A stretch of DNA of 57,934 nucleotides from Dehalococcoidia bacterium. Its GTDB lineage: Bacteria; Chloroflexota; Dehalococcoidia; GIF9; UBA5629. This document shows positions 26,476-48,804 of this stretch, piece by piece. Each line of letters starts with the position of its first letter. Positions within the stretch are counted from its first letter, which is position 1. Location of the stretch: the NCBI GenBank assembly GCA_028716085.1, contig JAQUQM010000002.1, positions 1 through 57,934 on the forward strand, read 5' to 3'. The notes under the pieces were generated by a model, which saw only the letters and a list, made by a program, of their open reading frames with translations, had not been told where the DNA came from and did not search any database. A program made the translations under genes and the position numbers.

Positions 26476-26528
26476 ATTATTTTTAAATAATAAACCCCAC
26501 CCCCTTACTCCGCGGAGGTAGCTTGTTA

Positions 26529-26628
26529 AGCGAGGTGGCGTTCTGACTTTAACAGCAGGCGGGACTGTACCGGGCTTTCACCGGTTTGCCTTCCTATTAA
26601 GCTCGGGGTCGCCCCTGAGCGCCTCGCC
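26529..26628 (-). promoter_or_regulatory. Cobalamin (B12) riboswitch aptamer
   Basis: Minus-strand RNA GGCGAGG...AAUAGGAAGGCAAACCGGUGAAAGCCCGGUACAGUCCCGCCUGCUGUUAAAGUCAGAACGCCACCUCGCU. It has the conserved GGAAG..GGUGAAA.CC core, a GCYGCUGU element and a B12-box-like AGUCAGAACGCCACCUCG. P1 closes between GGCGAGG (26622-26628) and CCUCGCU (26529-26535). Confidence 0.85.
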
Positions 26629-26651
26629 AACAATATTTAATTTGGCTAAAG

Positions 26652-26679: not shown

Positions 26680-26715
26680 TAGGCATATGAAGTTGGAGAT
26701 TGTAGTTAAAAACCT

Positions 26716-26724
26716 TGCTATAAT
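26716..26724 (+). promoter_or_regulatory. Possible extended -10 element (TGcTATAAT) upstream of the first oligosaccharyltransferase gene
   Basis: tgctataat lies 40 nt upstream of the ATG at 26764; there is no clear -35. The region is AT-rich, so chance occurrence is plausible. Confidence 0.25.
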
Positions 26725-26763
26725 AGGAAAACCGAGGTTATAATCTATCATAATACTAATACT

Positions 26764-29700
26764 ATGAATCAAAAACGGATACCACTCTGGCTGGTTGTAG
26801 GTATTATCCTCTTTATCATCGTCCTGATAGCTCTATGGCTCCGCATTGCCCTTCCGTATAAGCAGGTATTTGTCGGTGAGTGGGTGAAGATGACGGGTAT
26901 AGATGCCTATTATTACATGCGGCTGGTGGATAACCTGGTACGACATTTTCCGAACCTGACACAATTCGATCCGTATTATCAATATCCCGGAGGCGTCACT
27001 ACAGGAGGCGCGCCCAATTTCTTTGCCTATTTTATGGCCGCAATCATTTGGTTGCTGGGGCTCGGCTCACCTGACCAGCATATAGTCGATGTAATCGCGG
27101 TATACATACCACCACTCATGGCAGCGCTGACTATTATTCTTGTGTTTTTTATTGGTAAAACCATTGCCGGCAAATGGATGGGTTTATTGGCCGCCGGTCT
27201 GCTGGCAATAATGCCCGGTGAATTTCTAAATCGATCCATGCTTGGTTATACGGACCATCATATAGCCGAAGTCCTTTTTTCAACGATATTCATGCTGTTT
27301 GTGTTTCTGTCTTTAAAGAGTGGGGAGGGAGCTAGTTTTGACGCCATAAAACTGAAACAATGGAAGCTGCTGAACAAACCAATCATATATGGAGCACTGG
27401 CAGGTTTCGGATTGGCTCTGTACACGCTGACATGGGCCGGCGCGTTATTATTCGTACTTGTAGTACTTGTATTTTTAATAATTCAAGTAATAGTTGACCA
27501 TTTGAGGGGGCGAAAAAGCGATTATATAGCATTAGCACTAGGGCCGGCTTTCATAGTTGCAATATTAGGATATATACCATGGGCCAGGGATCTGCGGACA
27601 ATGTTATCGCTGGTCATGGGGTTGGCAGTGACAGTAGTACTGGTGGTACTGTCCGATTATATGCTTAACCGTGGTTACCGACGTTTCTATTACCCTGTAG
27701 CCGTTTTTGCCATGGGTGTAACAGGTGCCCTGGCTTTATATTTGGTCTACCCTGAATTATTGATTTCAACGACGTACCAGATCGCAAGCCTTTTATTCAC
27801 CTGGGGTACGAGCACGACGGTAATGGAGATGCAACCGCTCTTGATGTATCAGGGCGATTTATCTTTTGTTGTGGCGTTTGGTAATTATACGACTGCGTTT
27901 ATATTTTGTTTTGCAGGTTTGGGATTATTAATTTATCAGGCCTTGAGGCGAGATAATCCTGACAGAATTCTCCTGATTATATGGAGTGTAATTGTGCTTT
28001 TGTCCACACTGTCGATGAGGAGATTCGCATATTACTTTGCAGTCAATGTAGCATTGCTTACGGGATATCTGACCTGGATGGTGTTGCAGTTCGCTATGAC
28101 CAGAAAAGAAGAAGCTAAGCCTGCAGCTTTGCCGGTCAAACCAACTGCGAAAAATAGAAAAAAGATAGTAACAAAGCCGCCACCTTCTTCGTCGAAAAAG
28201 CCCTTGATTGTAGCGTTACTTATTTTATTGATTTTACTGCTTGTATACTACCCTAATTTCGGGCCGTTGCCGGACGGGCAGAGACCCTCTATCGATCTGG
28301 CTTCCCGGCCTTTATTTGCACCATCCAATGCATGGTGTGAATCCCTTGATTGGTTGCGCAGTAATTCTCCGGATCCTTTGAGTAGTGCAGATGCATACTA
28401 TGCATATTATCGGACAGGTACGGAATCACAGAATTTCAGCTACACAAAGACCGAGTACGGAGTGTTGAACTGGTGGGACTACGGCTACTGGGTTACGCGA
28501 ATCGGGCGCAGGTTACCTGCATCGAACCCGGGAACAGGTGAATACGGTGAAGCGCGATATTATACTGCTCAGGATGAGTTCAATGCGGGCAGAGCAATCA
28601 ACAACTATGGCACACGTTACGTGATTGTAGATTATGAAATCGCATCTTACAACAGTAAATTTCATGCGCTGGCTTCATTGAGTGGAGAGAATTATTCCCG
28701 ATATTTCGATCTCTTTGTCCAGAAACAGGGTACAAATTATCAGCCTGTTGTTCTCTTCTTCCCCGAGTACTACAGGAGTATGGTTGTCAGATTATATAAC
28801 TTCGATGGCAAAGCTGTGATTCCGCAAACCGTCACGGTAATTAATACTGCAGATAGGGTGGGGCCTCAGGGCAAAATTTACAAAGAGATAATGGACATCA
28901 AGGAATTCGCTACATTTACTGAGGCACAGGAGTTTATCAATAGCAAGAAATCGGATGATTATTTGATTGTTAGTGACGATCCTTTAAAAAGCCCTGTACC
29001 GCTTGCAGAATTAACGCAATATTCACTTCAATATAGCTCCAGTCAAAAGAATAGTTATTTATTCAAACCTATCTCAGATATTAAAATATTCGAATATCGT
29101 AAATTAGCCATACCGATCACTGGAGATTGGGATGGTAGAGGCATAACCAAACTGGGTGAGTGGCAACCTGATGAGAGCTGTTTCCTTCTTGATGTCGACG
29201 GGGACGGTATTTGGAATCCTGATAAAGGTGATGCAAAGCTTGGCCCCTTCGGTTTTTCTACCGATATTCCACTAATTGGTGATTGGACCGGGGATGGAAA
29301 AGATAAGATAGGTGTGTGGAGGCCTTCTGAACTATGTTTTTATCTGGATAGCAACGGTGACGGTGTATGGAATCCCGAAAAGGGAGATAGAAAATTAGGG
29401 CCTTACGGATTGTCGTTTAATAACACACCCGTAGTTGGTGATTGGAATGGCGATGGAAAAGATGAAATTGGTGTATGGGGGAATTCAAGGATTGCGAATA
29501 AAATGACGTTCTATCTGAACATAGCGGGTGATGGAAACTGGAATTCAGAGAACGGGAATTTGATCATAGATCCCTTTGGCAAAAAGGGGAATGTTCCTGT
29601 GATAGGCGATTGGAATAATGACGGAAAAGATGAAATAGGTGTCTGGGACCCTGTCAGCCGGGACTTCTATCTAGACGCAATGGGCAAAGGGGTATGGGAT

Positions 29701-29919
29701 GAAAGCAAGGGGGTCACCAAAATCGGTCCTTTTGGAGAAACCACCTTTACGCCTTTGAGCGGGCGCTGGAACGATAAGAACGGGACAAAATTGGGCATGT
29801 GGGATCCACAAACGGGCGGTTATTACCTGGATGTATCGGGTGAGCGCACATGGGGCGACAATTCATCCATCATTAAATTGAATCCGTTTACGCGGACAAA
29901 TCAGAATAGCTCGCCTTAG
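26764..29919 (+). CDS. STT3/AglB-type oligosaccharyltransferase (GT66-like) with C-terminal FG-GAP/VCBS-like repeat module
   Basis: 1051 aa; about 13 TM N-terminal half. First-loop motif TGIDAYYYMRLVDN, then LGYTDHHIAEV. Literal WWDYGYW motif at nt 28471-28485 in the soluble domain. A C-terminal 265 aa repeat module is absent from the downstream paralog. Confidence 0.85.
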   Translation: MNQKRIPLWLVVGIILFIIVLIALWLRIALPYKQVFVGEWVKMTGIDAYYYMRLVDNLVRHFPNLTQFDPYYQYPGGVTTGGAPNFFAYFMAAIIWLLGLGSPDQHIVDVIAVYIPPLMAALTIILVFFIGKTIAGKWMGLLAAGLLAIMPGEFLNRSMLGYTDHHIAEVLFSTIFMLFVFLSLKSGEGASFDAIKLKQWKLLNKPIIYGALAGFGLALYTLTWAGALLFVLVVLVFLIIQVIVDHLRGRKSDYIALALGPAFIVAILGYIPWARDLRTMLSLVMGLAVTVVLVVLSDYMLNRGYRRFYYPVAVFAMGVTGALALYLVYPELLISTTYQIASLLFTWGTSTTVMEMQPLLMYQGDLSFVVAFGNYTTAFIFCFAGLGLLIYQALRRDNPDRILLIIWSVIVLLSTLSMRRFAYYFAVNVALLTGYLTWMVLQFAMTRKEEAKPAALPVKPTAKNRKKIVTKPPPSSSKKPLIVALLILLILLLVYYPNFGPLPDGQRPSIDLASRPLFAPSNAWCESLDWLRSNSPDPLSSADAYYAYYRTGTESQNFSYTKTEYGVLNWWDYGYWVTRIGRRLPASNPGTGEYGEARYYTAQDEFNAGRAINNYGTRYVIVDYEIASYNSKFHALASLSGENYSRYFDLFVQKQGTNYQPVVLFFPEYYRSMVVRLYNFDGKAVIPQTVTVINTADRVGPQGKIYKEIMDIKEFATFTEAQEFINSKKSDDYLIVSDDPLKSPVPLAELTQYSLQYSSSQKNSYLFKPISDIKIFEYRKLAIPITGDWDGRGITKLGEWQPDESCFLLDVDGDGIWNPDKGDAKLGPFGFSTDIPLIGDWTGDGKDKIGVWRPSELCFYLDSNGDGVWNPEKGDRKLGPYGLSFNNTPVVGDWNGDGKDEIGVWGNSRIANKMTFYLNIAGDGNWNSENGNLIIDPFGKKGNVPVIGDWNNDGKDEIGVWDPVSRDFYLDAMGKGVWDESKGVTKIGPFGETTFTPLSGRWNDKNGTKLGMWDPQTGGYYLDVSGERTWGDNSSIIKLNPFTRTNQNSSP
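29122..29916 (+). repeat. Five intragenic tandem repeats (52-56 codons each) of an FG-GAP/VCBS-like unit
   Basis: Units start at 29122, 29278, 29437, 29605 and 29761. Consensus is GDW(x)GDGKD(E/K)IGVW-x(5-10)-FYLD-x2-GDG-x-WN-x3-G-x3-GPFG. The last unit is degenerate (GRWNDKNGTKLGMW...YYLDVSGERTW). Confidence 0.6.
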
Positions 29920-29927
29920 TAACCATT

Positions 29928-32264
29928 ATGAAACAAAAAAGAACAAAGTCGTGGCTGATTGCAGGCGCTATCCTCTTTGCGATCATCCTAATTACATTGT
30001 GGCTCAGGATTGTACTTCCATATCCGCAGGTATTTGTCGATAATTGGGTAAAACTTACGGGCGTGGATGCATATTATTATATGCGGCTGGTGGATAATCT
30101 GGTGCGCCATTTTCCCAATCTGACACAGTTCGATCCGTATTTTCAGTATCCCGGAGGGTGGGATCCAGGCGCCGCCCCAAATTTCTTTGCGTATTTTATG
30201 GGCGCCATTATTTGGATGCTGGGATTAGGAACGACGGATCAACACACTGTAGATGTGATTGCGGTATACATACCGCCGGTATTGGCTGCGCTGACAGTGA
30301 TTGCAGTATTTTTTATTGGCAAGACGATCGGTGGCAAGTGGATGGGATTATTGGCAGCCGGCCTACTGGCTATCATACCAGGCGAGTTTCTCAACCGTTC
30401 CCTGCTGGGCAATACCGATCATCATGTTGCCGAGGTGCTATTCTCATCAGTCGCAATGATGTTCGTTTTTATGTTTATTCACAGCAGTGAAAGGAAAAGC
30501 TTTGCCGGGTTGAGAGAAGAAGGATCATGGAAAGAAACCAAGCTTTTGTTGTATGGGATTCTGGGTGGAGTATTCCTTGGCACCTACCTTCTCACATGGG
30601 CAGGGGCATTATTATTCGTATTGATATTTTTCGTATTTATCGTGGTACAGGCTGTAATAGAACACATGTGCGGCAGATCCAACGATTACCTGGGGTTACT
30701 TGGATTATGTATATTTGGGACGGCATTTGTAGTATATCTGCCCTGGGCAAGAAGTACTTATGTTACGTTATCCTTGATGATAGCAATATTTACATCAATA
30801 TTGCTGGTTATTGTATCTCGCAGCATGCTTAAACTCCGCGTGAAAAGCCTTTATTATCCAGTCGTTATTATCAGCCTGGGAATTATTGGCTGCCTCGGTA
30901 TTTATCTTGTTAATGACAAACTGCTGATCCAATTGATTTCGCGTGTTTTCAGTATATTCATCTGGAGTACAGATACTACTGTTTTTGAGATGCAACCGCT
31001 GTTGTGGTACGGCAAGGAATTCACTTTTTCTGTTGTAATGCAGAATTATGCTACCGGTTTTATCCTGAGTATGTTGGCTCTGGTAATCTTGATATACCGT
31101 GTCATAAAAAATAACAGAGTTGTTGATGTGCTGCTTGCCGTCTGGAGCGTGATTATTCTACTGGCGGCGCTCAGCATGAAAAGGTTTGCCTATTATTTCG
31201 ACCTTAATGTAGCTTTGTTGACAGGTTACCTGTCGTGGATTGTATTAAGCCTGGTTCTAACCGGAAAAGTTCTGCCTGATAAAGATGAGCAAAAAGAAAA
31301 ACAAGATATTGGCACCCTAGGGAAAAAGGCCATAAAACAGAAATCAACACATAAATTCAGTAAAACATATATGTATGTGGCATTACTGATGATATTTCTC
31401 ATTGTTTACTATCCTGACATCGGCCCTTTACCGGGTGGAAGGAAACCGGCGATTGATGTTGCCAGCAAACCTGCGTTCTTACCTGCCGATTCATGGTGTG
31501 AATCCCTGGACTGGCTTAGATTGAATACGCCGGAACCACTTGGAGACGCAGATGACTACTACGGCTTATATCAAGCGCCTCATGAATCCGGGGGATTCAG
31601 TTATCCTTCAACGGCATACGGTGTGCTGTCCTGGTGGGACTACGGGTATCTGATTACAAGGATAGGGAGGAGAATACCGCATTCGAATCCCGGTATAGGA
31701 ACCTATGGCGAAGCGAACTATTTTATTGCCCAGGATCAAGAATCGTCCGGCAAGCTCATGCATGATTGGGGTATTAAATACGTTGTCATAAGCTATGATA
31801 TGACATCGTTTAAAGAGAAATTCTACGCCATGGCGCTTTACGGTGGTCATGAACGAGAGGATTACTATGATTTTTATCTGAAGAAAACAGATGGCGGTTA
31901 TGATGCAGTATTATTCTTTTATCCCGATTATTACCGCACTATGGCAGTAAGATTATTTAACTTTAATGGAGAAGAAGTGGTCCCCGCAGCTACTATGGTT
32001 GTGGATTATTCTATCGGGACGGATAAATCTGGAAAAAGATATAAAGTCATTAATGAGATTAAAAAGTTCGATTATTATTCCGAAGCTATGGATTTTATCG
32101 AACAGCACCAGGGCAATTACCGGATAATTGGAACAGACCCGGGCAACAGCCCTGTCCCGCTTGAAAAACTGAGTCATTATGAATTGGTCTACGGCTCCAG
32201 TCAACAAGCAGAAGTCGGCACGGTTACCACGGCCGGGATAAAGATTTTTGAGTATACAGAATAA
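29928..32264 (+). CDS. STT3/AglB-type oligosaccharyltransferase paralog (GT66-like), short form
   Basis: 778 aa and collinear with the upstream paralog (same N-terminal TGVDAYYYMRLVDNLVRHFPNLTQFDPY block and LGNTDHHVAEV). WWDYGYL at nt 31632-31646. It ends (IKIFEYTE*) exactly where the paralog's repeat extension begins. Starts 8 nt after the upstream stop. Confidence 0.85.
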   Translation: MKQKRTKSWLIAGAILFAIILITLWLRIVLPYPQVFVDNWVKLTGVDAYYYMRLVDNLVRHFPNLTQFDPYFQYPGGWDPGAAPNFFAYFMGAIIWMLGLGTTDQHTVDVIAVYIPPVLAALTVIAVFFIGKTIGGKWMGLLAAGLLAIIPGEFLNRSLLGNTDHHVAEVLFSSVAMMFVFMFIHSSERKSFAGLREEGSWKETKLLLYGILGGVFLGTYLLTWAGALLFVLIFFVFIVVQAVIEHMCGRSNDYLGLLGLCIFGTAFVVYLPWARSTYVTLSLMIAIFTSILLVIVSRSMLKLRVKSLYYPVVIISLGIIGCLGIYLVNDKLLIQLISRVFSIFIWSTDTTVFEMQPLLWYGKEFTFSVVMQNYATGFILSMLALVILIYRVIKNNRVVDVLLAVWSVIILLAALSMKRFAYYFDLNVALLTGYLSWIVLSLVLTGKVLPDKDEQKEKQDIGTLGKKAIKQKSTHKFSKTYMYVALLMIFLIVYYPDIGPLPGGRKPAIDVASKPAFLPADSWCESLDWLRLNTPEPLGDADDYYGLYQAPHESGGFSYPSTAYGVLSWWDYGYLITRIGRRIPHSNPGIGTYGEANYFIAQDQESSGKLMHDWGIKYVVISYDMTSFKEKFYAMALYGGHEREDYYDFYLKKTDGGYDAVLFFYPDYYRTMAVRLFNFNGEEVVPAATMVVDYSIGTDKSGKRYKVINEIKKFDYYSEAMDFIEQHQGNYRIIGTDPGNSPVPLEKLSHYELVYGSSQQAEVGTVTTAGIKIFEYTE

Positions 32265-32280: not shown

Positions 32281-33390
32281 ATGAAATCGGCAATAATCGC
32301 GATGACATTATATCAAACACAGGGGGCGGATCGTCTAACATGGCAGCAAGCTGAAGCGTTATCTCGAAAAGGCGATGAAGTATCAATTTTCACTTTTTCT
32401 ACTAGATTTAATCAGTTGCAGAATATAAAACTTATTAAGATGGGCATGCCCGCAGGATTTTATAGTGAAAAAATCTTTCGCATTTGCCTCCCTGTTAATT
32501 TCATTAAGGCTTATCAATGGGTACCGAGATTAAAGGGCTTCGATATTGTTTATGCTCATGGATATCCCGCCAGCTGGTTTGCATACCTGTCCAAAATATT
32601 CTTCGGTGTTAAATACATTCATTATTTTTATCATATCAATACACCGGGATTTTTCCCCGGCCTTTTCCCCAGGATTTATACAACAATTCAGCTTTTTTTC
32701 GAAAAAATAACTCTCAGTAAAGCTGATGGCGCAATCACAATCAGTGAATTTGCACAGCAGCAACTAACAAAATTTGCCAAGTTGGAGAGTAAAGTAATAT
32801 ATCCTCAAATAGATTGCATCAGGTTCCAACCTGATATAGACAGAAGAAAAATCAGGGATAGATATGATATAGGAGATGCCCCGCTGGTTCTGTTTGTCGG
32901 CGGCATATCACCACAAAAGTGCATTCATTTGCTGATCAATGCTTTTAAAATCTTAAAAATAGATATTCCGAATGCAAGGCTATTAATAGTCGGCAAGTTC
33001 CTCTTTGACAGTTATACTGACTTGTTGAAGCAGATGTCTGATGATTCAGTTGTATTTTCGGGAGAATTGGCTGATGAGGATATACCATACTGCTATGCGG
33101 CCTGTGATGTTTATGTATCGGCAAGTAGATGGGAGGGTTTCAATCTCCCGCTTGCGGAAGCACAGGCTTGCGGAAGGCCGGTTGTAGCCTTTAATATAGG
33201 GCCACATCCTGAAGTTATGATCGATGAAGTCACAGGATTTTTAGTCCCTGAGCTCGATTTACCAGCTATGGCTGAAAAAATTGAACTGCTGCTATGTGAT
33301 GAAAAGCTGAAAAATGCTATGGGGAAAGCTGCTCGGGGGTTTATTACAGAGAAATATTCTGAAAACCAATATCTCAATATTGAATTCTGA
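32281..33390 (+). CDS. Glycosyltransferase family 4 (GT-B, group 1)
   Basis: C-terminal EX7E motif (WEGFNLPLAEAQACGRPVVA) and VGG...K nucleotide-sugar binding region. I prefer the ATG at 32281 (RBS aaagagg 11 nt upstream). The tracked ORF starts at a TTG at 32248 that overlaps the OST gene. Confidence 0.85.
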   Translation: MKSAIIAMTLYQTQGADRLTWQQAEALSRKGDEVSIFTFSTRFNQLQNIKLIKMGMPAGFYSEKIFRICLPVNFIKAYQWVPRLKGFDIVYAHGYPASWFAYLSKIFFGVKYIHYFYHINTPGFFPGLFPRIYTTIQLFFEKITLSKADGAITISEFAQQQLTKFAKLESKVIYPQIDCIRFQPDIDRRKIRDRYDIGDAPLVLFVGGISPQKCIHLLINAFKILKIDIPNARLLIVGKFLFDSYTDLLKQMSDDSVVFSGELADEDIPYCYAACDVYVSASRWEGFNLPLAEAQACGRPVVAFNIGPHPEVMIDEVTGFLVPELDLPAMAEKIELLLCDEKLKNAMGKAARGFITEKYSENQYLNIEF

Positions 33391-33574
33391 TTATTAGAAA
33401 TAGTATCATGCCCAATATCACGGTCCCAAATCGATAGGATACTGGCAGTGCAAGCTGCTCTTAAAGTCCTGTTTCACTTTGGCATACTGATGTGCGGCAA
33501 TTTGATTTTGTTATAATTATACGCCGTATAGTTTATCCTGACGTTTGAAGATTAAGGTTTACGAAGATATTTGT

Positions 33575-34540
33575 ATGCTGCAAAAACTTGCACCGAAGAG
33601 TAAAGGTTCCTTACCCGCCGGTATACTCAGGATTGTGATCAAACCCTTTATTGGAACAGGAATAGGTAGATTTTCCCTTGTAAATAAGATATATCAGTTC
33701 TTCGCCAAGGTTTTTATCATTCCACAGGAAAACCAGCTTGTTACTATTAACGGATACAAGATGTATATCAATTTAGATCGTGAAAAAGGGCTTGACGGCA
33801 TCTCCCAGGAACTTATATTTCACGGTACATATGAGAAATATGCAACGTCTTTGTTCCAGCAGTATGTTAAAAGGGGTATGACTGTGATCACTATAGGGGC
33901 AAATATCGGATATTTCGTGCTGCTGTTCTCATCATTGGTGGGGAAGGATGGCAAGGTATTTGCGTTCGAGCCGGCACCTCAGAACTTCAACTTACTAGTT
34001 CGAAATATTGAACTGAACGGATATGATAACATCGTTGCACTGCAGAAGGCAGTTTCCGATAGGTCAGGAGCAGGGATATTGTATATAGATAAATCTGATC
34101 CGGCGGGGCACAGTCTTTTTCAGGAAGCTACAAACCAGGTAACCGGCGGTAAAGCGGAAACACTTTCTGTTGACATGGTAAGCCTCGACGAATATTTTAA
34201 GAATAATAATATCAGTGCAGATATTATTCAGATGGATATACAAGGTGCAGAACCTCTTGCTGTCAAGGGAATGGAGAATTTAATCTCCAGTAGTAAGGAA
34301 GTGAAGATTTTTACCGAATTCTGGCCGTTTGGATTGGAAAAGAGTGGATTTTCAGCGGAGCAATATTGGACTCAATTGAATCAATTGGGTTTTAAATATA
34401 TTTATCTCATTAATGAACGACACCAAAACCTAGAACCGACGAGCTTAGTGGAAGCAGTTAAACTTTGCAGGGGAAATGTAATTACACCTCCCAGCGCAGT
34501 CAATTTGTTATGTACTGCGACTCCACTGGATTGTATTTAA
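33575..34540 (+). CDS. FkbM-family SAM-dependent methyltransferase
   Basis: Methyltransf_21-type motifs VITIGANIGYF, VFAFEPAPQNF and IQMDIQGAE. ATG at 33575 preferred over the TTG at 33545. Confidence 0.8.
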   Translation: MLQKLAPKSKGSLPAGILRIVIKPFIGTGIGRFSLVNKIYQFFAKVFIIPQENQLVTINGYKMYINLDREKGLDGISQELIFHGTYEKYATSLFQQYVKRGMTVITIGANIGYFVLLFSSLVGKDGKVFAFEPAPQNFNLLVRNIELNGYDNIVALQKAVSDRSGAGILYIDKSDPAGHSLFQEATNQVTGGKAETLSVDMVSLDEYFKNNNISADIIQMDIQGAEPLAVKGMENLISSSKEVKIFTEFWPFGLEKSGFSAEQYWTQLNQLGFKYIYLINERHQNLEPTSLVEAVKLCRGNVITPPSAVNLLCTATPLDCI

Positions 34541-34634
34541 TTTGTGAATATTGCTACGATGATAAACATAGTGTTAGTTATGTCTTAACGATTCTTAATA
34601 TAAAACAGGTGGAAAGTTACAGGATGATTTCGTC

Positions 34635-35573
34635 ATGAAAACGCAAGGTTCGTTTCCCTTTCGGATATTTAAAAGCGCTGTTAAGCCGTTTATCGGGACA
34701 GGGATAGGGAGGTTCCGCCCTATTGGGGCATTCTATAATTATCTTGCCGGTAATATAACTGTGCCGGAGGAAGAGAGTACCATTTGTGTAAACGGGTACC
34801 GGATGCATACACATTCCGACAAGAAGGGAATTGAGGGTATTGCACATGAGTTGCTCTTAACTGGCACATATGAAGAATATACCTCTTTTGTATTTAAGCA
34901 ATATGTGAAAAAAGGTATGACAGTACTGGATATTGGCGCTAATATCGGATATTTCACTCTTTTAGCAGCCAGCCTGGTCGGGGAAGGCGGCAAAGTATAT
35001 GCATTTGAACCGGAACCTAAAAACTATAATTTACTTGTAAAAAATGTGGAGCTTAACAGCTATAACAATATCGTAGCGGTGCCCAAAGCTGTATCAGATA
35101 GAGTAGATGAACTTCAGCTGTTTATTGACAGGGTAGAATCGGGAGGGCATAGCCTGTTTAAAGAATCTGCACGAAGAGGAAATATAAACTCCGTAGAATC
35201 AGTGACGGTCAGCACCACCAGTATTGATGAATTTTTCGGTGACAACCAGTCGATTATTGATGTTATTAAAATTGATATTGAGGGTGCGGAAGTGCTGGCT
35301 TTAAAAGGAATGCAAAATACCTTAAGTAGAAATAGGGATGTTAAGTTATTTACGGAATTTACTCCTCATAAACTTAGAAATGCTGGAAATTCCGCCGAGG
35401 AGTACTGGGCGTATCTGGTAAAATCAGGATTCAATCATATCTATATCATTAATAGCCACAAAAAGGTACTGGAAAATGCCACTCTTGATGCGATATTACG
35501 TTATTGCCGGGGAGGAATGTTTAAACAAGCAGGACATGTGAATTTACTATGTGCAAAAATCTCCCTGGATTAG
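34635..35573 (+). CDS. FkbM-family SAM-dependent methyltransferase (tandem paralog)
   Basis: Collinear with the upstream gene (VKPFIGTGIGRF, VLDIGANIGYF, VYAFEPEPKNY, IKIDIEGAE, VNLLC). Confidence 0.8.
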   Translation: MKTQGSFPFRIFKSAVKPFIGTGIGRFRPIGAFYNYLAGNITVPEEESTICVNGYRMHTHSDKKGIEGIAHELLLTGTYEEYTSFVFKQYVKKGMTVLDIGANIGYFTLLAASLVGEGGKVYAFEPEPKNYNLLVKNVELNSYNNIVAVPKAVSDRVDELQLFIDRVESGGHSLFKESARRGNINSVESVTVSTTSIDEFFGDNQSIIDVIKIDIEGAEVLALKGMQNTLSRNRDVKLFTEFTPHKLRNAGNSAEEYWAYLVKSGFNHIYIINSHKKVLENATLDAILRYCRGGMFKQAGHVNLLCAKISLD

Positions 35574-35621
35574 TACATATACAGATAATAAGATTAATCG
35601 GTAAATATTCGATAATTAGTT

Positions 35622-36875
35622 ATGTATTTTAAAAACGATCGTGACCATCCTATAAAAACACCTTTTGCCTGCCCATTCCCGTGGACATCGCTTTCATTAA
35701 ATTATGACGGTGGAATATCCTTTTGTTGCCTGCATTACCCATTTGCTCATATCAGTGAGCTTTCAGAGAAATCGGTAGATTCTATATGGAACGGCAGCGT
35801 AGCACAGGATTTACGACGGAGGTGGAAAGAGGGAAGGCTTAAAGGCACACCCTGCGGAAATTGCCCTGGATTAAGTGAGTTTAAAAGATATGCTTACCCT
35901 GTGAATGATCTGGAAAATATGCCTGAAGGACCCTACAAAGAGAATGTTCAACTCAATATCTCTGAGATTAAGCAGAGCGAAACCAGATTGAAATCACTGC
36001 CTATCAGCATTTATTATACGCCGAGTGTTCTATGCAATATAGATTGCATACATTGCTGCCAGCCGAAAATCGGCAAAAATAATTATACGTACCTTGATAC
36101 GGAAGAACTGATTAAATTCTACCGGATTCTGGGCATGAAATCGGTCAGTCATGCTATATCAGGCGGGGAACCCTTATATTTGAAGCAGGTATCCAGACTG
36201 ATTAGTGAATTTAGCCCTGAACAAAAAGCCGCTTCCGAATTGATATTATTCACCAACGCACTTCTCATAAAAGAGAAGTTTGACCAGATTGCCGGATTCA
36301 GAAAATATGATTTTGAGATCAGTATTGCGTCATCGAATAAAGAGATATATGAGTATATTCATAGTGGCGCCAGCTATGACATGTTAATCGAGAATCTTGA
36401 ATTCCTTATTCAACGCAAAGCCGAAGGAATTGACTTATCTGCAAATCGAATAATGGTACTGATGAAATCAAATTTCAATGACCTGAACAATGTTTTTGAG
36501 TTTGCATCAAGGTATAAATTGGATGATACCTGGATACGCGCTATTGATGCTGCATATCATAAATACAAAATAATGCCGGATGAAAACATTTTCATGTTAC
36601 CCTATTTACTTGGCGGCATACCCAACTGGCAGGATACAATGGAGAAAGCATCACAAGCCGCTGAATCAAGCAATAACCGTGTAGCCTATGATCACATACA
36701 ATATCTGCAGAAAAATGTCTCCGGGTCGCGAATTGTAAATTTGTATCGTTCGATAATTAATTGGCTGCGCTGGTTTTTCACTATAAGCATCCTGCGATTA
36801 TGGCGGGAACCAGTGCAAAGGGCAAAAATTGCTTCTCTGAGACATCGTTTATCTACATTATTAAGCAGAAAATAG
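35622..36875 (+). CDS. Radical SAM enzyme with an N-terminal SPASM-like cysteine module (apparently permuted domain order)
   Basis: CxxxCxxC radical SAM motif CNIDCIHCC at about aa 138-146 and a GGEP glycine-rich motif. The N-terminal 90 aa read ACPFPWTSLSLNYDGGISFCC...IWNG...PCGNCPG, matching the C-terminal SPASM/twitch modules of the two other radical SAM proteins in this window. The C-terminus has no Cys cluster. Confidence 0.78.
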   Translation: MYFKNDRDHPIKTPFACPFPWTSLSLNYDGGISFCCLHYPFAHISELSEKSVDSIWNGSVAQDLRRRWKEGRLKGTPCGNCPGLSEFKRYAYPVNDLENMPEGPYKENVQLNISEIKQSETRLKSLPISIYYTPSVLCNIDCIHCCQPKIGKNNYTYLDTEELIKFYRILGMKSVSHAISGGEPLYLKQVSRLISEFSPEQKAASELILFTNALLIKEKFDQIAGFRKYDFEISIASSNKEIYEYIHSGASYDMLIENLEFLIQRKAEGIDLSANRIMVLMKSNFNDLNNVFEFASRYKLDDTWIRAIDAAYHKYKIMPDENIFMLPYLLGGIPNWQDTMEKASQAAESSNNRVAYDHIQYLQKNVSGSRIVNLYRSIINWLRWFFTISILRLWREPVQRAKIASLRHRLSTLLSRK

Positions 36876-36922
36876 TATAAGTCTTTAGTAGTAACGTTTA
36901 TGGTTAACAAAGCAATTTATCT

Positions 36923-38077
36923 ATGAGTATCGGTAGATCGATCATTAATATTCTGGTAGCAATCTTCGTTTCGTTATACTCGATAGACTTCTTAAGCCGC
37001 TTTATATTCTGTCTACAGGATAGAGGTATGCGCTTGTTCAGCAATAAAATGTTCAGGAAATTTTATTCCCTGGAGCCTTATGAACAAAGAGATCTTAATA
37101 ATAGGACCATATTTACGCTTGTTCCATGTTTTGAAGCTACATTTGCGGAGATGATCCAATATGAAGAAAAAGGCGGACACTGGTTCAGGGCCGGTCGATT
37201 AAAAAAATGGCTTAATGAGAATGAGATTAATATTAATAACGCCGGAATTAATATAAATTCCCACGGCTTTCGGGGATACGAACTTCCACAAGCAAAGGAT
37301 GCTGGTATCGTGCGCATTATGGCTTTGGGAGATAGCTGCACTTTCGGTACAGTTGAATCAATGTCTTATCCCCGGGCTATGGAACGTAAGCTTAACTCCA
37401 ATGGTATTAAAGCCGAGGTTATTAATGCCGGCGTGGAGAAATATGGAATCAGGCATCTATTGAAGAGACAAGAGTATTATCTTGGATTTAAACCCGATAT
37501 TGCTACGATTTATACTGGCTGGATCGGAGCCAACTTTTTTGGCGACGATTTCGCAGGAACTCTCGATGTTTTCAATAACAGCTATTGGCTGGCAGCGTTA
37601 AACTCCAAATTTAGAAAATTGCGCGGCGTTTCGAATTGTGAAGAACCAAAGAAAACCAATGGTAAATTTTATAAAAAAGTAAACACGAATTATGGATCAA
37701 CATATTATATGGACCAAATATGGCTGCTAGCTCAGGGGTTAATGCAAAACAATGTAAAAGTTGTGTTATTTACCTTGCCTTCATGGTTTGATCCCCTTAA
37801 TGAAGCGGATGCAGATATGCTGAAATTCGGTAACCTGCCACCGTTTTCAGGCAATGCGTACATTTTTGGCTATCGTGTTTATGAGTACAATAACCGACTT
37901 CGCGATTTATCGGCCAAGCATGAAATTCCTTTAATAGATCTGGAAAGATATATAGACAACACTTATCACGATAAGAAGCAATATTTTTGGGATGCATGCC
38001 ATCTCAATCCGGAAGTACAGGTAGAAGTCGGTGAATTTATTGCGGCTGAATTAATGAGAACGGGGCTGATAGGGTAG
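36923..38077 (+). CDS. SGNH/GDSL-family hydrolase (esterase or acyltransferase-like), N-terminal membrane anchor
   Basis: N-terminal TM IINILVAIFVSLYSIDF; block I IMALGDSCTFG (GDS); block V WDACHLN (DxxH). Confidence 0.7.
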   Translation: MSIGRSIINILVAIFVSLYSIDFLSRFIFCLQDRGMRLFSNKMFRKFYSLEPYEQRDLNNRTIFTLVPCFEATFAEMIQYEEKGGHWFRAGRLKKWLNENEININNAGININSHGFRGYELPQAKDAGIVRIMALGDSCTFGTVESMSYPRAMERKLNSNGIKAEVINAGVEKYGIRHLLKRQEYYLGFKPDIATIYTGWIGANFFGDDFAGTLDVFNNSYWLAALNSKFRKLRGVSNCEEPKKTNGKFYKKVNTNYGSTYYMDQIWLLAQGLMQNNVKVVLFTLPSWFDPLNEADADMLKFGNLPPFSGNAYIFGYRVYEYNNRLRDLSAKHEIPLIDLERYIDNTYHDKKQYFWDACHLNPEVQVEVGEFIAAELMRTGLIG

Positions 38078-38127
38078 CGCTGGCGATAATAATCATATTA
38101 GTGGATACTTGATCCAGGCTGAACTGT

Positions 38128-39699
38128 TTAGATAAATTTCCTCAGTAGTTTCTTAATTGGCTCTATATTTACTCCGATAGATTTTTCAATATTTAGTAAA
38201 ATTGCAATATCTTCGGCATCAAAGCTGCGCGTCAATAAAATGATAATTCCGTATATGGCGAAGTAAAAAACAAAAACCAGGGGCAATATCCACCATGTAA
38301 TGGTAATAAATTGGCGAATGACAAATTGAAATAGTAGCGCCAGAACGACAGATACGATGACAGGTTTGAGCAGGTTTTTACTGAAAGGTTGAATTTTGGT
38401 GGAAATATACAATCTCACAGATATTATGAGATTTAAAACTGCCAGAGATATTGCCGAAGCTGTTGCGGCACCAACAGGGCCTGCAATGGGAATCAACGTG
38501 ACACACAGAGAGATATTTAATAGAGCCGAGATAATACCTGCCCACATGATTAATTTGGAATTTCCCGAGGCGAGGAATATGCATGATCCCAATCCCAGTA
38601 AATTCATAATCATAAAACCACTGGCTAAAATGCGAAGCACATCGGAAGCAGGGCCATAGGCATAAACTTCACCGAACAAAACGTTGAGTACCGCATCCGG
38701 GAACAAGAACATTACCAGCCATAGAGGCAAAGTCAATGATACAAGCCACTTGGTTGAAATAATATAAGAGCGCTTCACTTCGGCAGTCAAACCCTGGGCA
38801 AACAGATTGGCTATGACAGGTATATAAATAAGCATAAATGAAGCCAGTGGCACGGTGATGAAATATGCCAGCGGATAAGCCGCATTATATAAACCCACCA
38901 CATCTGGTGACTTGAAATGGCCCAAGATCATCGTGTCGGCATTAAAAATGAGAATGGATACTATGGCGGTTACTGAGATAGGAAGTGAAAATACGATTAA
39001 GTTTTTTAAAGCGTCAATATCAAACATGTTGATTTTAAAAACTGCCAGGCCGGGCAGTTTTATTAATGTGTAAATTAGTAAAAAGCTGAATGTCAATGTA
39101 ATGGCAGCCAGGTAAGCATAGAAGAAAAACTGGAAAACCATATTCAACATAACCATACCAATCAGCAGAACCAGAAACGAGGCATTAAGCATAATCGATT
39201 GAAAGAGTGCCTGGGGCTCCATTTTATTAAAGCCGCGGAAAACGGCTGCCATAATATTTATCATGGTTAAAAAAGGAAGACCTATCGCGAATATTCTAAG
39301 TACCGGAGACAGCTCGGCGGAATGAAAAATATTTATGGCGATGATATCCGCAAGAACGAATAACAATAGACCGGCAATAATACTGGTGATAATGCTTATT
39401 TGAAATGTTGATGCAATGGTCTTCCCAATTTCGCGCTCAGCGGACTTGCCCCGGTGAAAAGCAATATATCTCGTGCTTCCATCTTGAAGTCCCAGGCAAG
39501 ACAATACCATGGCAAAATTCAGCACTACTAATGCCAATGAAAAGATTCCGTAATTAGCTTCCAACCCATATCGTGCAATGATAAGCCTGGCGAAAAATTG
39601 CAGTACCAGTCCCAGATACATTCCGATTGTGCCGATACCCATACCGCGGAATATCTGCTGCAATGATTCATTGAGCCGGCTGGAATTATCTGTGCTCAT
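38128..39699 (-). CDS. Polysaccharide/oligosaccharide flippase (MOP superfamily, Wzx-like)
   Basis: 523 aa, about 14 TM helices, with the N-terminal FRGMGIGTIGMYLGLVLQFFARLIIARYG pattern typical of polysaccharide biosynthesis (Polysacc_synt) proteins. Confidence 0.8.
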   Translation of the reverse strand: MSTDNSSRLNESLQQIFRGMGIGTIGMYLGLVLQFFARLIIARYGLEANYGIFSLALVVLNFAMVLSCLGLQDGSTRYIAFHRGKSAEREIGKTIASTFQISIITSIIAGLLLFVLADIIAINIFHSAELSPVLRIFAIGLPFLTMINIMAAVFRGFNKMEPQALFQSIMLNASFLVLLIGMVMLNMVFQFFFYAYLAAITLTFSFLLIYTLIKLPGLAVFKINMFDIDALKNLIVFSLPISVTAIVSILIFNADTMILGHFKSPDVVGLYNAAYPLAYFITVPLASFMLIYIPVIANLFAQGLTAEVKRSYIISTKWLVSLTLPLWLVMFLFPDAVLNVLFGEVYAYGPASDVLRILASGFMIMNLLGLGSCIFLASGNSKLIMWAGIISALLNISLCVTLIPIAGPVGAATASAISLAVLNLIISVRLYISTKIQPFSKNLLKPVIVSVVLALLFQFVIRQFITITWWILPLVFVFYFAIYGIIILLTRSFDAEDIAILLNIEKSIGVNIEPIKKLLRKFI

Positions 39700-39836
39700 C
39701 TCGCCTCAGGCATTAATAGTACAGAAGTTCCGACATCCGGTAAAGCCGATGGAAAGCATACTAAAAGCCGGAACACGGAATAATCTCAGGTTTTTGCGAG
39801 GTATTAATTGAAGATGATGAAAATTTAACTATCACC

Positions 39837-40895
39837 TTATTTTCTAGAGCTGGTCATTCTGGTAATAATAACATTTTCGCTGGGATAGTTGGGTGCGTCC
39901 CAGGGGAATACTTCGCCTTTAAGGCATCTCTGCCATCGCGAGAGGTCCTCATCCACCATAACCTCAATAAGGCGGTCAAACTTTGTTTGCGGCTGCCAAT
40001 TCAGCACTGTTTTTGCTTTGTGATAATCACCCTGAAGAAGATTAACATCCACCGGTCTAAAAAATGTTTTATCAACCGTAACATATTTATCAGGGGCCAA
40101 CCCAAGTCTTGCGAAAGTTTTTTCCACAAATTCCCTGACCGTGTGTGTTTCATCAGTTGCAATAACAAAATCATCGGGTTTTTTCTGCTGCATCATCAGC
40201 CACATAGCCTGTACGTATTCGGGCGCATAGCCCCAATCTCTTTTTGCTTCCAAGTTGCCGAGCCTTAGCTCTTTCTCGAGGCCAAGTGCAATTTTGGCTG
40301 CGCAATTGGTTATTTTTCGCGTTACGAACTCGAGTCCCCTGATTGGAGATTCATGGTTGAAAAGAATGCCGCTGCAGGCAAATATGCCATGGGTTTCACG
40401 GTACATCCTGGTGATCCAATGGGCATAGAGTTTTGCTGCGGCATAAGGGCTGGCAGGCTTGAAGTGCGTATCTTCGGTTTGTTGAGCGGCATCTCCATTG
40501 CCGTAAAGCTCGCTGGTAGATGCCTGGTAAAACCTTATTTTGGGATTAATCTGGCGTACAGCTTCGAGGATCCTGGCAACGCCCAATCCCGTTATAGTCC
40601 CGGAAGCTACGGGTTGTTCAAATGAAGCTCCTACAAAACTCTGTGCCGCAAGATTATAGATTTCATCGGGTTGGCACATTTCAATAGCTTCATAAATAGA
40701 GGACGAGTCGATTAAATCAGCCGGTATAAGGAACATTTTGTCAAAGATGCCAAGGTATAAAAGTCGCCAGAAATTGGGAGTCGACAGGCGTCTGAAGGTG
40801 CCATAGACCGAATATCCTTTTTCTAACAGGAATTTGGCAAGGTAAGCCCCGTCTTGCCCGGTTACGCCTGTTATTATTGCCTTTTTAGCCATCAA
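39837..40895 (-). CDS. gmd: GDP-mannose 4,6-dehydratase family (extended SDR)
   Basis: ITGVTGQDGAYLAKFLLEKGY Rossmann motif, ASTSELYG, SPYAAAKLYAHW (YxxxK) and FNHESPIRG; 352 aa. Confidence 0.85.
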   Translation of the reverse strand: MMAKKAIITGVTGQDGAYLAKFLLEKGYSVYGTFRRLSTPNFWRLLYLGIFDKMFLIPADLIDSSSIYEAIEMCQPDEIYNLAAQSFVGASFEQPVASGTITGLGVARILEAVRQINPKIRFYQASTSELYGNGDAAQQTEDTHFKPASPYAAAKLYAHWITRMYRETHGIFACSGILFNHESPIRGLEFVTRKITNCAAKIALGLEKELRLGNLEAKRDWGYAPEYVQAMWLMMQQKKPDDFVIATDETHTVREFVEKTFARLGLAPDKYVTVDKTFFRPVDVNLLQGDYHKAKTVLNWQPQTKFDRLIEVMVDEDLSRWQRCLKGEVFPWDAPNYPSENVIITRMTSSRK

Positions 40896-40922
40896 TTATG
40901 ATTCTCAAGTATATTCGAAGCA

Positions 40923-41942
40923 TTATTTTGATATATAGTTATAGCCATCCCAGGGTAAAGCCACACCTTTCAACCAGCTTTCCCACCTTTTTACATCTTC
41001 GTGGACCATTATCTCTACCAGACGTTCAAATTTTACTTCGGGCTGCCAGCCCAGTTTGGTCTTTGCCCTGGCGTAGTCTCCCTGCCAGAAATTCACATCA
41101 ACGGGCCTCAATAATTCTTTATTCACTTTAACGTACTTGGACCAATCCAGACCTACAATGCTGAAAGCCTGCTGGAGGAACTGCTTTACAGTATGCATTT
41201 CGTTGGTGGCAATAATATAGTCATCCGGTTCCTTTTGCTGCAGCATGCGCCACATAGCGTTAACATATTCAGGGGCATAACCCCAGTCCCTCTTAGCTTC
41301 AATATTTCCCATAGCCAATTCATTGTCCAATCCAAGTGAAATCCTAGCCACGGCGTTGGAGATTTTTCTTGTTACAAAATCCAGTCCTCTGAGCGGGGAT
41401 TCATGATTGAACATTATCCCGTTGCAAATAAAAATACCATAACCGGCGCGGTATATATTGGCTATCCAGTGTGCATAGAGCTTAGCTACGGCATACGGAT
41501 TGGCCGGATTAAAAGGCGTATCTTCAGTAAGAGGTTTTGTGTTACCCTGCCCGAAAAGCTCGATAGTGGAAGCCTGGTAAACTCTAATATCCTTGTTGAT
41601 GCTCCTGACTGCCTCCAGCAGCCTAGTCAGTCCCAGCCCTGTGATCTCCCCGTAGCCTACAGGGTGCTCAAATGATGCTCCCGGGAAACTCTGTGCCGCC
41701 AGATGGTAAATCTCATCAGGACGACTGACCCGGATCGTATCTATAAGAGAGGACGAATCATTGAGTTCTGCAGTGAGCAGATGAACCCTATTATGAACAT
41801 CGAGATACTGCAACCTCCAAAAATTGGGGGTGGATGAACGGCGGTAACTACCGTATACTGTGTAATCCTTATCCAACAGCAGCTTTGCCAGGTAGGCGCC
41901 GTCCTGGCCGGTGATACCGGTAATTAATGCCCGTTTAGACAC
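40923..41942 (-). CDS. gmd: GDP-mannose 4,6-dehydratase family, diverged tandem paralog
   Basis: ITGITGQDGAYLAKLLLDKDY, ASTIELFG, NPYAVAKLYAHW and FNHESPLRG; 339 aa. Collinear with the neighbouring copy but clearly diverged. Confidence 0.85.
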   Translation of the reverse strand: MSKRALITGITGQDGAYLAKLLLDKDYTVYGSYRRSSTPNFWRLQYLDVHNRVHLLTAELNDSSSLIDTIRVSRPDEIYHLAAQSFPGASFEHPVGYGEITGLGLTRLLEAVRSINKDIRVYQASTIELFGQGNTKPLTEDTPFNPANPYAVAKLYAHWIANIYRAGYGIFICNGIMFNHESPLRGLDFVTRKISNAVARISLGLDNELAMGNIEAKRDWGYAPEYVNAMWRMLQQKEPDDYIIATNEMHTVKQFLQQAFSIVGLDWSKYVKVNKELLRPVDVNFWQGDYARAKTKLGWQPEVKFERLVEIMVHEDVKRWESWLKGVALPWDGYNYISK

Positions 41943-47886: not shown

Positions 47887-48804
47887 ATGTATAAAAGCGA
47901 TATCTCCAAGGTAAACCGCACTACAGAATCGCCCGAATTCCCGGATGTTATTCTCTTAGACAACACCAACGCGTGCAATCTGCGCTGCACCATGTGCGAT
48001 CATAAAAACATAAAAAAATACCGAAAAATACAAAAAATGGACTGGGACCTCTATAAGAAGATTATTGATGAAATAGCTATAGAAAAGCCGCAAGCCCGAA
48101 TCTGGCAGATTTTTTATGGAGACCCTTTTTTATGCTTGGACATGCCGGAACGTATCAAATATGCTAAAGGCAGAGGCTTAAAAGATGTTGTGTTAAATAC
48201 AAACGGCGTTCTTATGACCAAAGAAAAATCAAGGGCGGTCATAGAAGCCGGGCTTGATGTGATGTATGTTGGTATCGACGCGGCCGATAAGATGACATAT
48301 GAACAGATACGGGTAGGTGGTGATTTTACAGCAGCGAAAGCAAATACGCTGATGTATCGTGACCTGTTAAGAAAGATCGGCAGGCCGGAACAAAACCTGT
48401 TTGTGCAGTTTGTAGTCAGTGATCTCAATATCAATGAGGTTGACCGGTTTAAAAAATACTGGGTGAGTGAGGGGGTGAATGTTAAAATAAGGCCGAAAGT
48501 CAGCTGGGCCGGCCTGGTTGACGCGTCGAATCTTCGCCCGAACTCAGAAGTTGAGCGTAAGCCGTGTTACTGGATAGTAAGAACTGTAAATATCTGTGCA
48601 GACGGATCGGTTGCTTTCTGTACGGCCGACGTACATTGCCGGGTAAAATGTGGGGACGCCAATACGATGACGATCAGGGAAATCTGGAGAGGTGACCTGG
48701 AAAAATATCGCATAATGCATAGTGAAAACAGGTTTGACGAGCTGCCTCCCATGTGCCGTGATTGCTCCGATTGGCAGTCTTCGTATGCAGACTATTATCA
48801 ATGA
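47887..48804 (+). CDS. Radical SAM/SPASM(twitch)-domain protein
   Basis: CNLRCTMCDH (CxxxCxxC) near the N-terminus. C-terminal KPCYWIVRTVNICADGSVAFCTADVHC...EIWRG...PPMCRDCSDW auxiliary-cluster module. 305 aa. Confidence 0.85.
   Translation: MYKSDISKVNRTTESPEFPDVILLDNTNACNLRCTMCDHKNIKKYRKIQKMDWDLYKKIIDEIAIEKPQARIWQIFYGDPFLCLDMPERIKYAKGRGLKDVVLNTNGVLMTKEKSRAVIEAGLDVMYVGIDAADKMTYEQIRVGGDFTAAKANTLMYRDLLRKIGRPEQNLFVQFVVSDLNINEVDRFKKYWVSEGVNVKIRPKVSWAGLVDASNLRPNSEVERKPCYWIVRTVNICADGSVAFCTADVHCRVKCGDANTMTIREIWRGDLEKYRIMHSENRFDELPPMCRDCSDWQSSYADYYQ

Follow-up and report, generated by a model that had tools for sequence, protein, structure and literature searches.

The window analyzed here, the whole 57,934-nucleotide (nt) stretch of contig JAQUQM010000002.1 (assembly GCA_028716085.1, Dehalococcoidia bacterium), carries two adjacent open reading frames, ORF1 and ORF2, that encode oligosaccharyltransferases (OSTs). 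Profile and fold comparisons support the placement of both proteins in the STT3/AglB/PglB family (CAZy glycosyltransferase (GT) family GT66), on the AglB side and not with PglB or ArnT/PMT. From their homology to AglB-L of Archaeoglobus fulgidus (AfAglB-L), we judge with a probability of roughly 80% that both are working AglB-type N-oligosaccharyltransferases. ORF1 and ORF2 are followed by a cassette of glycan genes and preceded by a divergent cobalamin (cob) operon.

The tandem oligosaccharyltransferase genes and their products

The two genes and the motifs discussed below, including those of external loops (EL) 1 and 5, are as follows.

26764-29919, + strand: ORF1, long AglB-type OST of 1051 amino acids (aa), ATG start, combining a GT-C membrane domain of 13 helices with a periplasmic AglB core and, at the C-terminus, an FG-GAP propeller
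26902-26904, + strand: ORF1 Asp47 in EL1 (GIDAYYY), predicted metal and catalytic ligand
27250-27261, + strand: ORF1 T163-D164-H165-H166, D-x-H motif, aligned with the DHH of AfAglB-L
27817-27828, + strand: ORF1 T352-V-M-E355, TIXE-type motif in EL5, aligned with the TIAE of AfAglB-L
28471-28485, + strand: ORF1 WWDYG, residues 570-574
28630-28671, + strand: ORF1 DK-type motif with an insertion, D623...K632-F-H-A-L, predicted Ser/Thr(+2) pocket
29110-29883, + strand: ORF1 C-terminal extension (residues ~783-1040), about five FG-GAP/VCBS-like repeats of ~52 aa, GDW[DNT]GDGKDxIGVW, predicted all beta
29928-32264, + strand: ORF2, short AglB-type OST of 778 aa, ATG start, the faster-evolving paralog
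30066-30068, + strand: ORF2 Asp47 (GVDAYYY)
30414-30425, + strand: ORF2 T163-D164-H165-H166, aligned with AfAglB-L
30978-30989, + strand: ORF2 T351-V-F-E354, EL5 motif, aligned with the TIAE of AfAglB-L
31632-31646, + strand: ORF2 WWDYG, residues 569-573
31791-31832, + strand: ORF2 DK-type region S622-Y-D-M-T-S-F-K-E-K631-F-Y-A-M, with the Lys kept and the Asp of the family replaced by Ser
26715-26744, + strand: weak sigma-70-like promoter candidate TTGCTA-18-TATAAT (10/12 match), ending 20 nt 5' of the ORF1 ATG

The genes are separated by 8 nt. The first-pass annotation had reported two frames of 1051 and 778 aa at this spacing, a WWDYG motif in each (nt 28471-28485 and 31632-31646), and the motifs G[IV]DAYYYMR and TDHH in both; all of these were confirmed, WWDYGYW beginning at residue 570 of ORF1 and WWDYGYL at residue 569 of ORF2. 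No recognizable Shine-Dalgarno sequence was found before ORF1 (26745-26763) or ORF2 (29920-29927). As the -10-like TATAAT ends just 20 nt before the ORF1 start codon, a very short mRNA leader is possible. It should be noted that the matches of the promoter and terminator scan were not enriched relative to shuffled sequences, which leaves the 8-nt gap as the only argument for the operon structure of ORF1-ORF2.

Pfam STT3 (PF02516, gathering score 24.5 bits) was matched by ORF1 with 95.6 bits (6e-27) and by ORF2 with 80.8 bits (2e-22), and the AglB_core-like Pfam model was matched at 9e-21 and 5e-18, respectively. NCBIfam TIGR04154, a model of the archaeal AglB subfamily named [quoted passage not shown] (trusted cutoff 450 bits), covered residues 14-780 with 597.3 bits (E 5.5e-179) for ORF1 and 564.5 bits (E 4.6e-169) for ORF2. 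ORF2 used as a single query retrieved AfAglB-L (3WAJ/5GMY) with a match spanning residues 8-650 (E 2e-48). When a 25-sequence family profile was searched against PDB, the matches included AfAglB-L (1e-90) and eukaryotic STT3B (4e-15), but no chain of PglB at E<=1.

The same ranking was obtained with structure. An AlphaFold2 model of ORF1 (110 homologs; mean predicted local distance difference test score (pLDDT) 86.3, predicted template modeling (TM) score 0.83) folds as an OST, and the top 19 Foldseek matches in PDB are all OST catalytic subunits. The best of them is AfAglB 7e9s (E 2.7e-29, 19-21% identity), followed by eukaryotic STT3 (~1e-13 to 1e-17) and then PglB (~1e-11, TM score 0.54-0.57); other GT-C enzymes (DPY19, PMT, ArnT, and ALG) rank below PglB. 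The proposals of the first-pass annotation that the proteins are AglB-like rather than PglB-like, and that they combine a polytopic N-terminal half with a soluble C-terminal domain, are thus borne out by the TIGR04154 scores, the STT3 and AglB_core matches, the profile search, and the ORF1 model. The possibility that WWDYG occurs by chance in a GT-C protein other than an OST was rejected from the profile and fold rankings, as the motifs sit within full-length family matches.

Residues were compared in a HMMER alignment to AfAglB-L, and their conservation was counted among 120 listed relatives. Separately, a species scan (one genome per GTDB species) returned at least 420 relatives. Loci of relatives are cited below by labels such as L001. 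Asp47 aligns with the Asp of GGNDPWYYY in AfAglB-L, and Asp164 and His166 of TDHH align with its NDHH (the DHH motif); all three residues are invariant, in agreement with the earlier suggestion that the acidic EL1 motif and TDHH provide divalent-cation ligands. TVME in ORF1 and TVFE in ORF2 align with TIAE, the Glu of which is present in 120/120 relatives. An invariant Arg before the last helices (R420 in ORF1 and R419 in ORF2, in RF-AYYF) matches the conserved Arg of QNRFAYYF. The W, W, D, and G of WWDYG, which aligns with the same motif in AfAglB-L, are found in 120/120. Finally, D......K-F-x-A-[LM] aligns with DIEMETxKYYAM, that is, a DK-type pocket with an insertion, the Lys of which is kept in 119/120 relatives and the Asp in 117/120. 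In ORF2, K631...M635 is retained, with Ser in place of the DK-motif Asp. In total, it departs from the family at S622 (D in 117/120), L575 (W in 114/120), and N162 (Y/F).

These proteins therefore have in common with AfAglB-L (AF_0380; PDB 3WAJ/3WAK/5GMY/7E9S) the 13-helix GT-C domain, the periplasmic core, and all the aligned motifs, from the EL1 Asp to the inserted DK-type motif. They differ in their bacterial host, in their low Foldseek identity, and in two structural features. First, the AglB_L1 peripheral domain (PF18079), carried by all but two shorter entries among 120 listed relatives of AfAglB-L, is absent from ORF1, ORF2, and all 120 listed bacterial relatives, and ORF1 has the FG-GAP propeller instead. 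Second, the Lys/Pro-rich loop before the last TM (transmembrane) helix (ORF1 residues 447-479, ~28102-28200; ORF2 residues ~445-480) is far longer than its AfAglB-L counterpart and is modeled with pLDDT <50. The ORF1 extension alone matched Pfam FG-GAP_3 with 31.3 bits (cutoff 26.9) and was modeled as regular four-strand units (pLDDT ~80-94) that weakly resemble integrin and Tc-toxin propellers in fold; a similar extension is found in about one quarter of relatives.

PglB of Campylobacter and Desulfovibrio (PDB 3RCE, 5OGL, 6GXC) shares the superfamily, the overall fold, and WWDYG with the window proteins, and it likewise has a bacterial host and an adjoining glycan-assembly cluster with a flippase. 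However, it gave no sequence match and was the lowest-ranked OST in the fold comparison. PglB also carries an MI motif, whereas the window proteins are DK-type. Eukaryotic STT3A and STT3B have a similar catalytic fold and motifs and are paralogous catalytic subunits with divided roles, but the similarity is weak (4e-15 at best), the C-terminal domains differ, and each window protein is predicted to work alone, as a single subunit.

The glycan cassette and the proposed pathway

The genes below lie downstream of ORF2, except for the last two, which lie upstream of ORF1.

32282-33390, + strand: GT4-family glycosyltransferase, first gene of the cassette (Pfam Glycos_transf_1, 2e-36)
33545-34540 and 34635-35573, + strand: two FkbM-family methyltransferases
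35622-36875, + strand: radical S-adenosylmethionine (SAM)/SPASM ("twitch") enzyme, no counterpart in L001
36923-38077, + strand: GDSL-family esterase/acyltransferase, no counterpart in L001
38128-39699, - strand: Wzx/MOP-family lipid-linked oligosaccharide flippase (Pfam Polysacc_synt, 4.5e-19)
39837-41942, - strand: two GDP-mannose 4,6-dehydratase-like genes, 6-deoxyhexose supply (TIGR01472, 402 and 375 bits, cutoff 415)
42176-47593, + strand: secreted protein of 1805 aa, C25-propeptide-like, with choice-of-anchor R and a C-terminal fn3/purple-acid-phosphatase-N region
47887-48804 and 51409-52443, + strand: two more radical-SAM/SPASM genes of the glycan cluster
49493-50212, + strand: DPM1/ArnC-like GT2 of the polyprenyl-phosphate sugar synthase type, far below equivalog cutoffs
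50254-51270, + strand: flippase-like membrane protein (TIGR00374), far below equivalog cutoffs
56280-57773, - strand: PMT_2-type GT-C, far below equivalog cutoffs
9353-12289, - strand: 978-aa protein that carries a signal peptide, repeats of the BNR/sortilin type, a linker rich in Pro and Thr, and, at the C-terminus, a TM helix with a basic tail
12341-14560, - strand: 739-aa He_PIG Ig-domain protein beside the 978-aa protein (56% identity to its counterpart in L005)

The GT4 gene likely starts at ATG 32282, which is preceded by AAAGAGG at 11 nt, and not at TTG 32248. Further downstream genes code for an acetyltransferase, an AsnB-type amidotransferase, WbqC, and a dTDP-glucose-dehydratase-like protein.

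The association of the OST genes with glycan genes was also seen across 65 bacterial AglB loci. The most frequent neighbors were NAD-dependent sugar epimerases/dehydratases (20/65 loci) and GT4 enzymes (13/65), followed by B12-binding radical SAM proteins (10/65, including L026 5171-6562). UDP-glucose/GDP-mannose dehydrogenases and DegT aminotransferases were each present at 8/65 loci, and GT2 enzymes, Wzx, and UDP-GlcNAc 2-epimerase each at 6/65. The three radical-SAM/SPASM genes of the window's glycan cluster and the recurrence of radical-SAM neighbors suggest unusual sugar modifications, such as C-methylation or epimerization.

Comparison with L001, a close relative with the same OST pair, revealed that the cassette (window 32282-41942; L001 12423-19557) differs in content, order, and strand. 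The gene families common to both cassettes are 26-45% identical, whereas the flanking genes are 74-90% identical. The Wzx flippase shares 38% identity with that of L001, where it is on the opposite strand. The dehydratases share 74-79% aa identity, with saturated synonymous divergence, as compared with a dS of 0.4-0.6 for the OST and cob genes. From these sequence comparisons, the glycan cassette looks replaceable beside a fixed OST locus, in the manner of a serotype-style exchange.

The 1805-aa secreted protein is encoded inside the glycan gene cluster, and a partial gene at the same position in L001 is 68% identical. In its layout, the 978-aa protein is reminiscent of archaeal S-layer glycoproteins, and it may therefore be an envelope protein and a target of the OSTs.

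In the pathway that we propose, a glycan would be assembled at the cytoplasmic face of the membrane on a polyprenyl phosphate carrier, presumably a bacterial polyprenol, undecaprenyl or other, as mono- or diphosphate, and not the dolichol used with AfAglB-L. The adjacent cassette would provide the GT4 enzyme, the FkbM methyltransferases, the radical-SAM enzyme, and 6-deoxyhexoses derived through the GDP-mannose dehydratases, and the glycan probably contains a methylated 6-deoxyhexose. The lipid-linked glycan would be flipped by the Wzx-type flippase. Each OST is predicted to bind both the glycan and a divalent cation, the latter coordinated by Asp47, Asp164/His166, and the EL5 Glu, while WWDYG and the DK-motif Lys would hold the +2 Ser/Thr of the N-X-S/T sequon. 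Transfer would take place outside the cytoplasmic membrane, with the Asn amide of a secreted or envelope protein receiving the glycan en bloc. The paralogs would be co-transcribed, with their work most likely divided by donor glycan or acceptor set. The FG-GAP propeller of ORF1 may form an additional extracellular binding surface, and our guess is that it would anchor to, or recognize, envelope components. Since an intact OST pair lies beside a variable sugar cassette, N-glycosylation of surface proteins in the archaeal way is very probable in this lineage.

In Haloferax volcanii, AglD, AglR, and AglS add the final sugar outside the cell from dolichyl-phosphate-mannose. The GT2, flippase-like, and PMT_2 genes of the window follow a similar three-part logic, a likeness of domain content only, with scores below cutoffs.

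Several observations speak against N-glycosylation by ORF1 and ORF2. The 58-kb window yielded no initiating phosphoglycosyltransferase of the WecA/PglC/AglH type. The large secreted proteins encoded nearby show no excess of sequons, with 23 observed and 23.2 expected from composition in the 1805-aa protein, and 7 observed and 10.4 expected in the 978-aa protein. ORF2 lacks the DK-motif Asp and the Trp after WWDYG. Moreover, a PGF-CTERM-like signal was found at no C-terminus of the large secreted proteins in the 58-kb window, nor was an archaeosortase partner found there; the archaeosortase A/PGF-CTERM partnership behind the name of TIGR04154 may not exist in bacteria.

The plain sequon counts would also fit an OST fold acting on an acceptor other than Asn, for example an O-linking transferase, a glycan-polymer ligase, or a lipid glycosyltransferase co-opted for envelope polysaccharide. 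The neighborhood, with its Wzx, GT4, sugar-nucleotide enzymes, acetyltransferase, and PMT_2 GT-C, indeed resembles a generic surface-polysaccharide locus. We nevertheless regard this as unlikely: neither a Wzy polymerase nor a chain-length regulator was found, the DPY19, PMT, ArnT, and ALG folds are much weaker matches, and WWDYG, the DK-motif Lys, and the acceptor-clamping Glu of the EL5 TxxE motif are invariant or nearly so in the 120 relatives. Such retention of the elements that read the sequon would be difficult to account for if the acceptor were not of the sequon type.

Divergence and maintenance of the two paralogs

ORF1 and ORF2 are 51-52% identical. They are most alike at residues 51-150 (82-86% aa and 71-81% nt identity) and least alike at residues 250-400 (TM helices and EL5, 34-42%) and 600-780 (peripheral domain, 32-45%). 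Recent gene conversion would be one conceivable source of the N-terminal likeness, but this segment is also the most conserved family-wide. The overall pattern would fit paralogs that handle donors or acceptors differently, although it does not prove this.

Both OST copies are maintained by purifying selection. Relative to the L001 orthologs, the ratio of nonsynonymous to synonymous divergence (dN/dS) is 0.13 for ORF1 (87% ortholog) and 0.16 for ORF2, similar to the neighboring housekeeping genes btuC (0.12) and cbiB (0.17). Copy numbers were counted within 10 kb on either side of each locus. Most bacterial loci have one OST copy; besides the window itself, tandem pairs were found in L013 and in the 85-87% relatives of the window (L001-L004). 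One NCBI metagenome-assembled genome (MAG) contig with a 74% ORF1 ortholog stops 333 nt past that gene, and these 333 nt hold a fragment that matches ORF2 residues 41-108 with 84% identity and carries ORF2-specific residues, which makes the pair conserved in at least three lineages. Four AglB-type OST genes, two per strand, are present in L010 1835-11816 (Dehalococcoidia MAG SPRUCE 159). In a neighbor-joining (NJ) tree built without support values and without Halobacteria, Methanomicrobia, or PglB, L010 and L013 have two paralog lineages in common. The copies in L010 and L013 indicate that OST multiplication is recurrent in Dehalococcoidia.

Duplicated AglB genes are ordinary for this family: several paralogs per genome are typical of the AfAglB-L/TIGR04154 group, as in the window, and three AglB chains of A. 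fulgidus were among the PDB matches. The two glycan or acceptor specificities suggested for the pair in the first-pass annotation are therefore reasonable, although putative.

ORF2 lies on a long branch, its orthologs were found only in the immediate relatives of the window, and it carries the S622, L575, and N162 departures described above. It could thus be argued that ORF1 is the sole working OST and that ORF2 is decaying or has become a non-catalytic regulatory or scaffolding subunit. This seems quite improbable, as its metal-binding and catalytic residues and its sequon-pocket Lys are intact, its dN/dS is like that of ORF1 and the housekeeping neighbors, and its frame is intact and of full length in the window as well as in the 85% relative, being a fragment only in the 74% lineage, where the contig ends. 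From its sequence, ORF2 is a faster-evolving copy and not a broken one.

Host, distribution and implications

The following features lie upstream of ORF1.

26679-26652, - strand: sigma-70-like promoter match TTGACA-16-TATATT for the riboswitch (promoter scan)
26517-26641, - strand: cobalamin riboswitch aptamer of the btuFCD-cob operon (31.6 bits, Rfam gathering 31.5), divergent from ORF1 and not part of the OST system
26473-26454, - strand: terminator-like hairpin with a T-run before btuF (scan)
26427-25492, - strand: btuF, first gene after the riboswitch
254-898: NarL/LuxR response regulator

The promoter match, aptamer, and hairpin together look like a complete riboswitch unit. The riboswitch operon has the order btuF-btuC-btuD-cbiB-cobD-cobQ-cobO-cobT-cobS-cobU, and aptamers at the corresponding position were also found in L001, L005 (as AdoCbl-II), and L008. 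A hybrid histidine kinase is also encoded in the window. The flanks had been described in the first-pass annotation as clearly bacterial; its B12 riboswitch and NarL regulator were found, while a clear Shine-Dalgarno sequence was not seen before the OST genes.

The host is bacterial, and the OST gene is vertically inherited at a cob-adjacent site within a Dehalococcoidales group. The junction of riboswitch, cob operon, and OST pair is present in separate JGI, ENA, and NCBI assemblies, and the junction of cob operon with a single OST recurs in Dehalococcoidales MAG loci L005, L011, L039, L008, and L035 (49-67% identity of their cob proteins to those of the window). This repetition across separate assemblies, with synteny, indicates that the arrangement is not chimeric, and an archaeal or chimeric contig was rejected on these grounds. 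The best named-family model and the best structure match are both archaeal, but archaeal DNA misjoined to a bacterial contig, or a wholly archaeal window, is barely conceivable given the repeated junction, the continuous GC content across it, and the far greater distance of the sampled archaeal proteins (58-308 bits) than of hundreds of bacterial ones.

The nearest named OST relatives are from MAGs labeled "Dehalococcoidia bacterium" or "Chloroflexi bacterium". The best 80 of the at least 420 relatives are mostly from Dehalococcoidia/Dehalococcoidales MAGs, at 35-56% identity. Full-length relatives with 25-33% identity were found in Phycisphaerae/Planctomycetota, in Acidobacteriota, and in one Chlorobiaceae-labeled MAG, while archaeal proteins were at 21-26%. 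One of these relatives is held by a closed 3.6-Mb chromosome of a Phycisphaerales MAG (CP070685.1). The loci from other phyla are the following.

Planctomycetota: L040, L042, L045, L050
Chlorobiaceae-labeled MAG: L043
Acidobacteriota: L044, L058-L061, L063, L065, L066, L068

With a hidden Markov model of the bacterial family, Dehalococcoidia proteins scored 700-1250 bits, AfAglB-L 308, and TACK/Asgard AglB 58-90. In the NJ tree, the proteins from Chloroflexota, Planctomycetota, and Acidobacteriota formed one clade, beside Archaeoglobi and far from TACK/Asgard. In a search seeded with AfAglB-L, the named relatives among the 120 listed were all Archaeoglobi. It was reported that a few bacterial homologs nest in a euryarchaeal clade, implying at least two transfers from archaea to bacteria (Lombard 2016, PMC4973528). 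The bacterial AglB clade fits this picture, yet it is much larger than "a few". The family may have come into bacteria from a Euryarchaeota-like AglB and would now form a separate bacterial clade, which may reflect an acquisition apart from the PglB lineage.

The first-pass annotation considered the pair its best candidate for an undescribed N-glycosylation system. No paper describing AglB/STT3/PglB-type enzymes of Dehalococcoidia was found in a literature search that left most subscription journals outside, so that a prior description is possible. On the other side, NCBI and JGI pipelines already annotate OSTs in Dehalococcoidia MAGs. The family of ORF1 and ORF2 is itself known, and public pipelines name such genes correctly. 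New relative to the literature found are the range of bacterial hosts, the large clade, the fusion to FG-GAP repeats, the conservation of the tandem pair, and the swapping of the cassette. The locus is thus a sound and testable lead for bacterial N-glycosylation, and not a new kind of system.

To our knowledge, established STT3-type N-glycosylation in bacteria is almost wholly that of PglB, in Campylobacterota and a few Desulfobacterota. Some cultured Dehalococcoidia have an S-layer envelope without peptidoglycan. We see about an even chance that the envelope proteins of Dehalococcoidia, and more remotely those of some Planctomycetota and Acidobacteriota, are modified by a complete N-glycosylation pathway of the archaeal style, with an AglB clade acquired apart from PglB. 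If the Dehalococcoidia enzymes are active, bacterial N-glycosylation would be far wider than textbooks state, with a major uncharacterized lineage in abundant uncultured bacteria of groundwater, sediment, and soil. This lineage would have innovations of its own, namely the OST-FG-GAP fusion, stable tandem OSTs (up to four copies), and serotype-like cassette swapping. Other members of the Chloroflexota are reported to have taken the archaellum from archaea (2025, PMC12488501), and the AglB clade would add a clear case of transfer of cell-surface machinery from archaea to Chloroflexota. The enzymes would also provide new single-subunit OSTs for glyco-engineering, possibly with other sequon or donor rules, and replacement of the glycan cassette would explain strain-level surface variation in uncultured subsurface bacteria.

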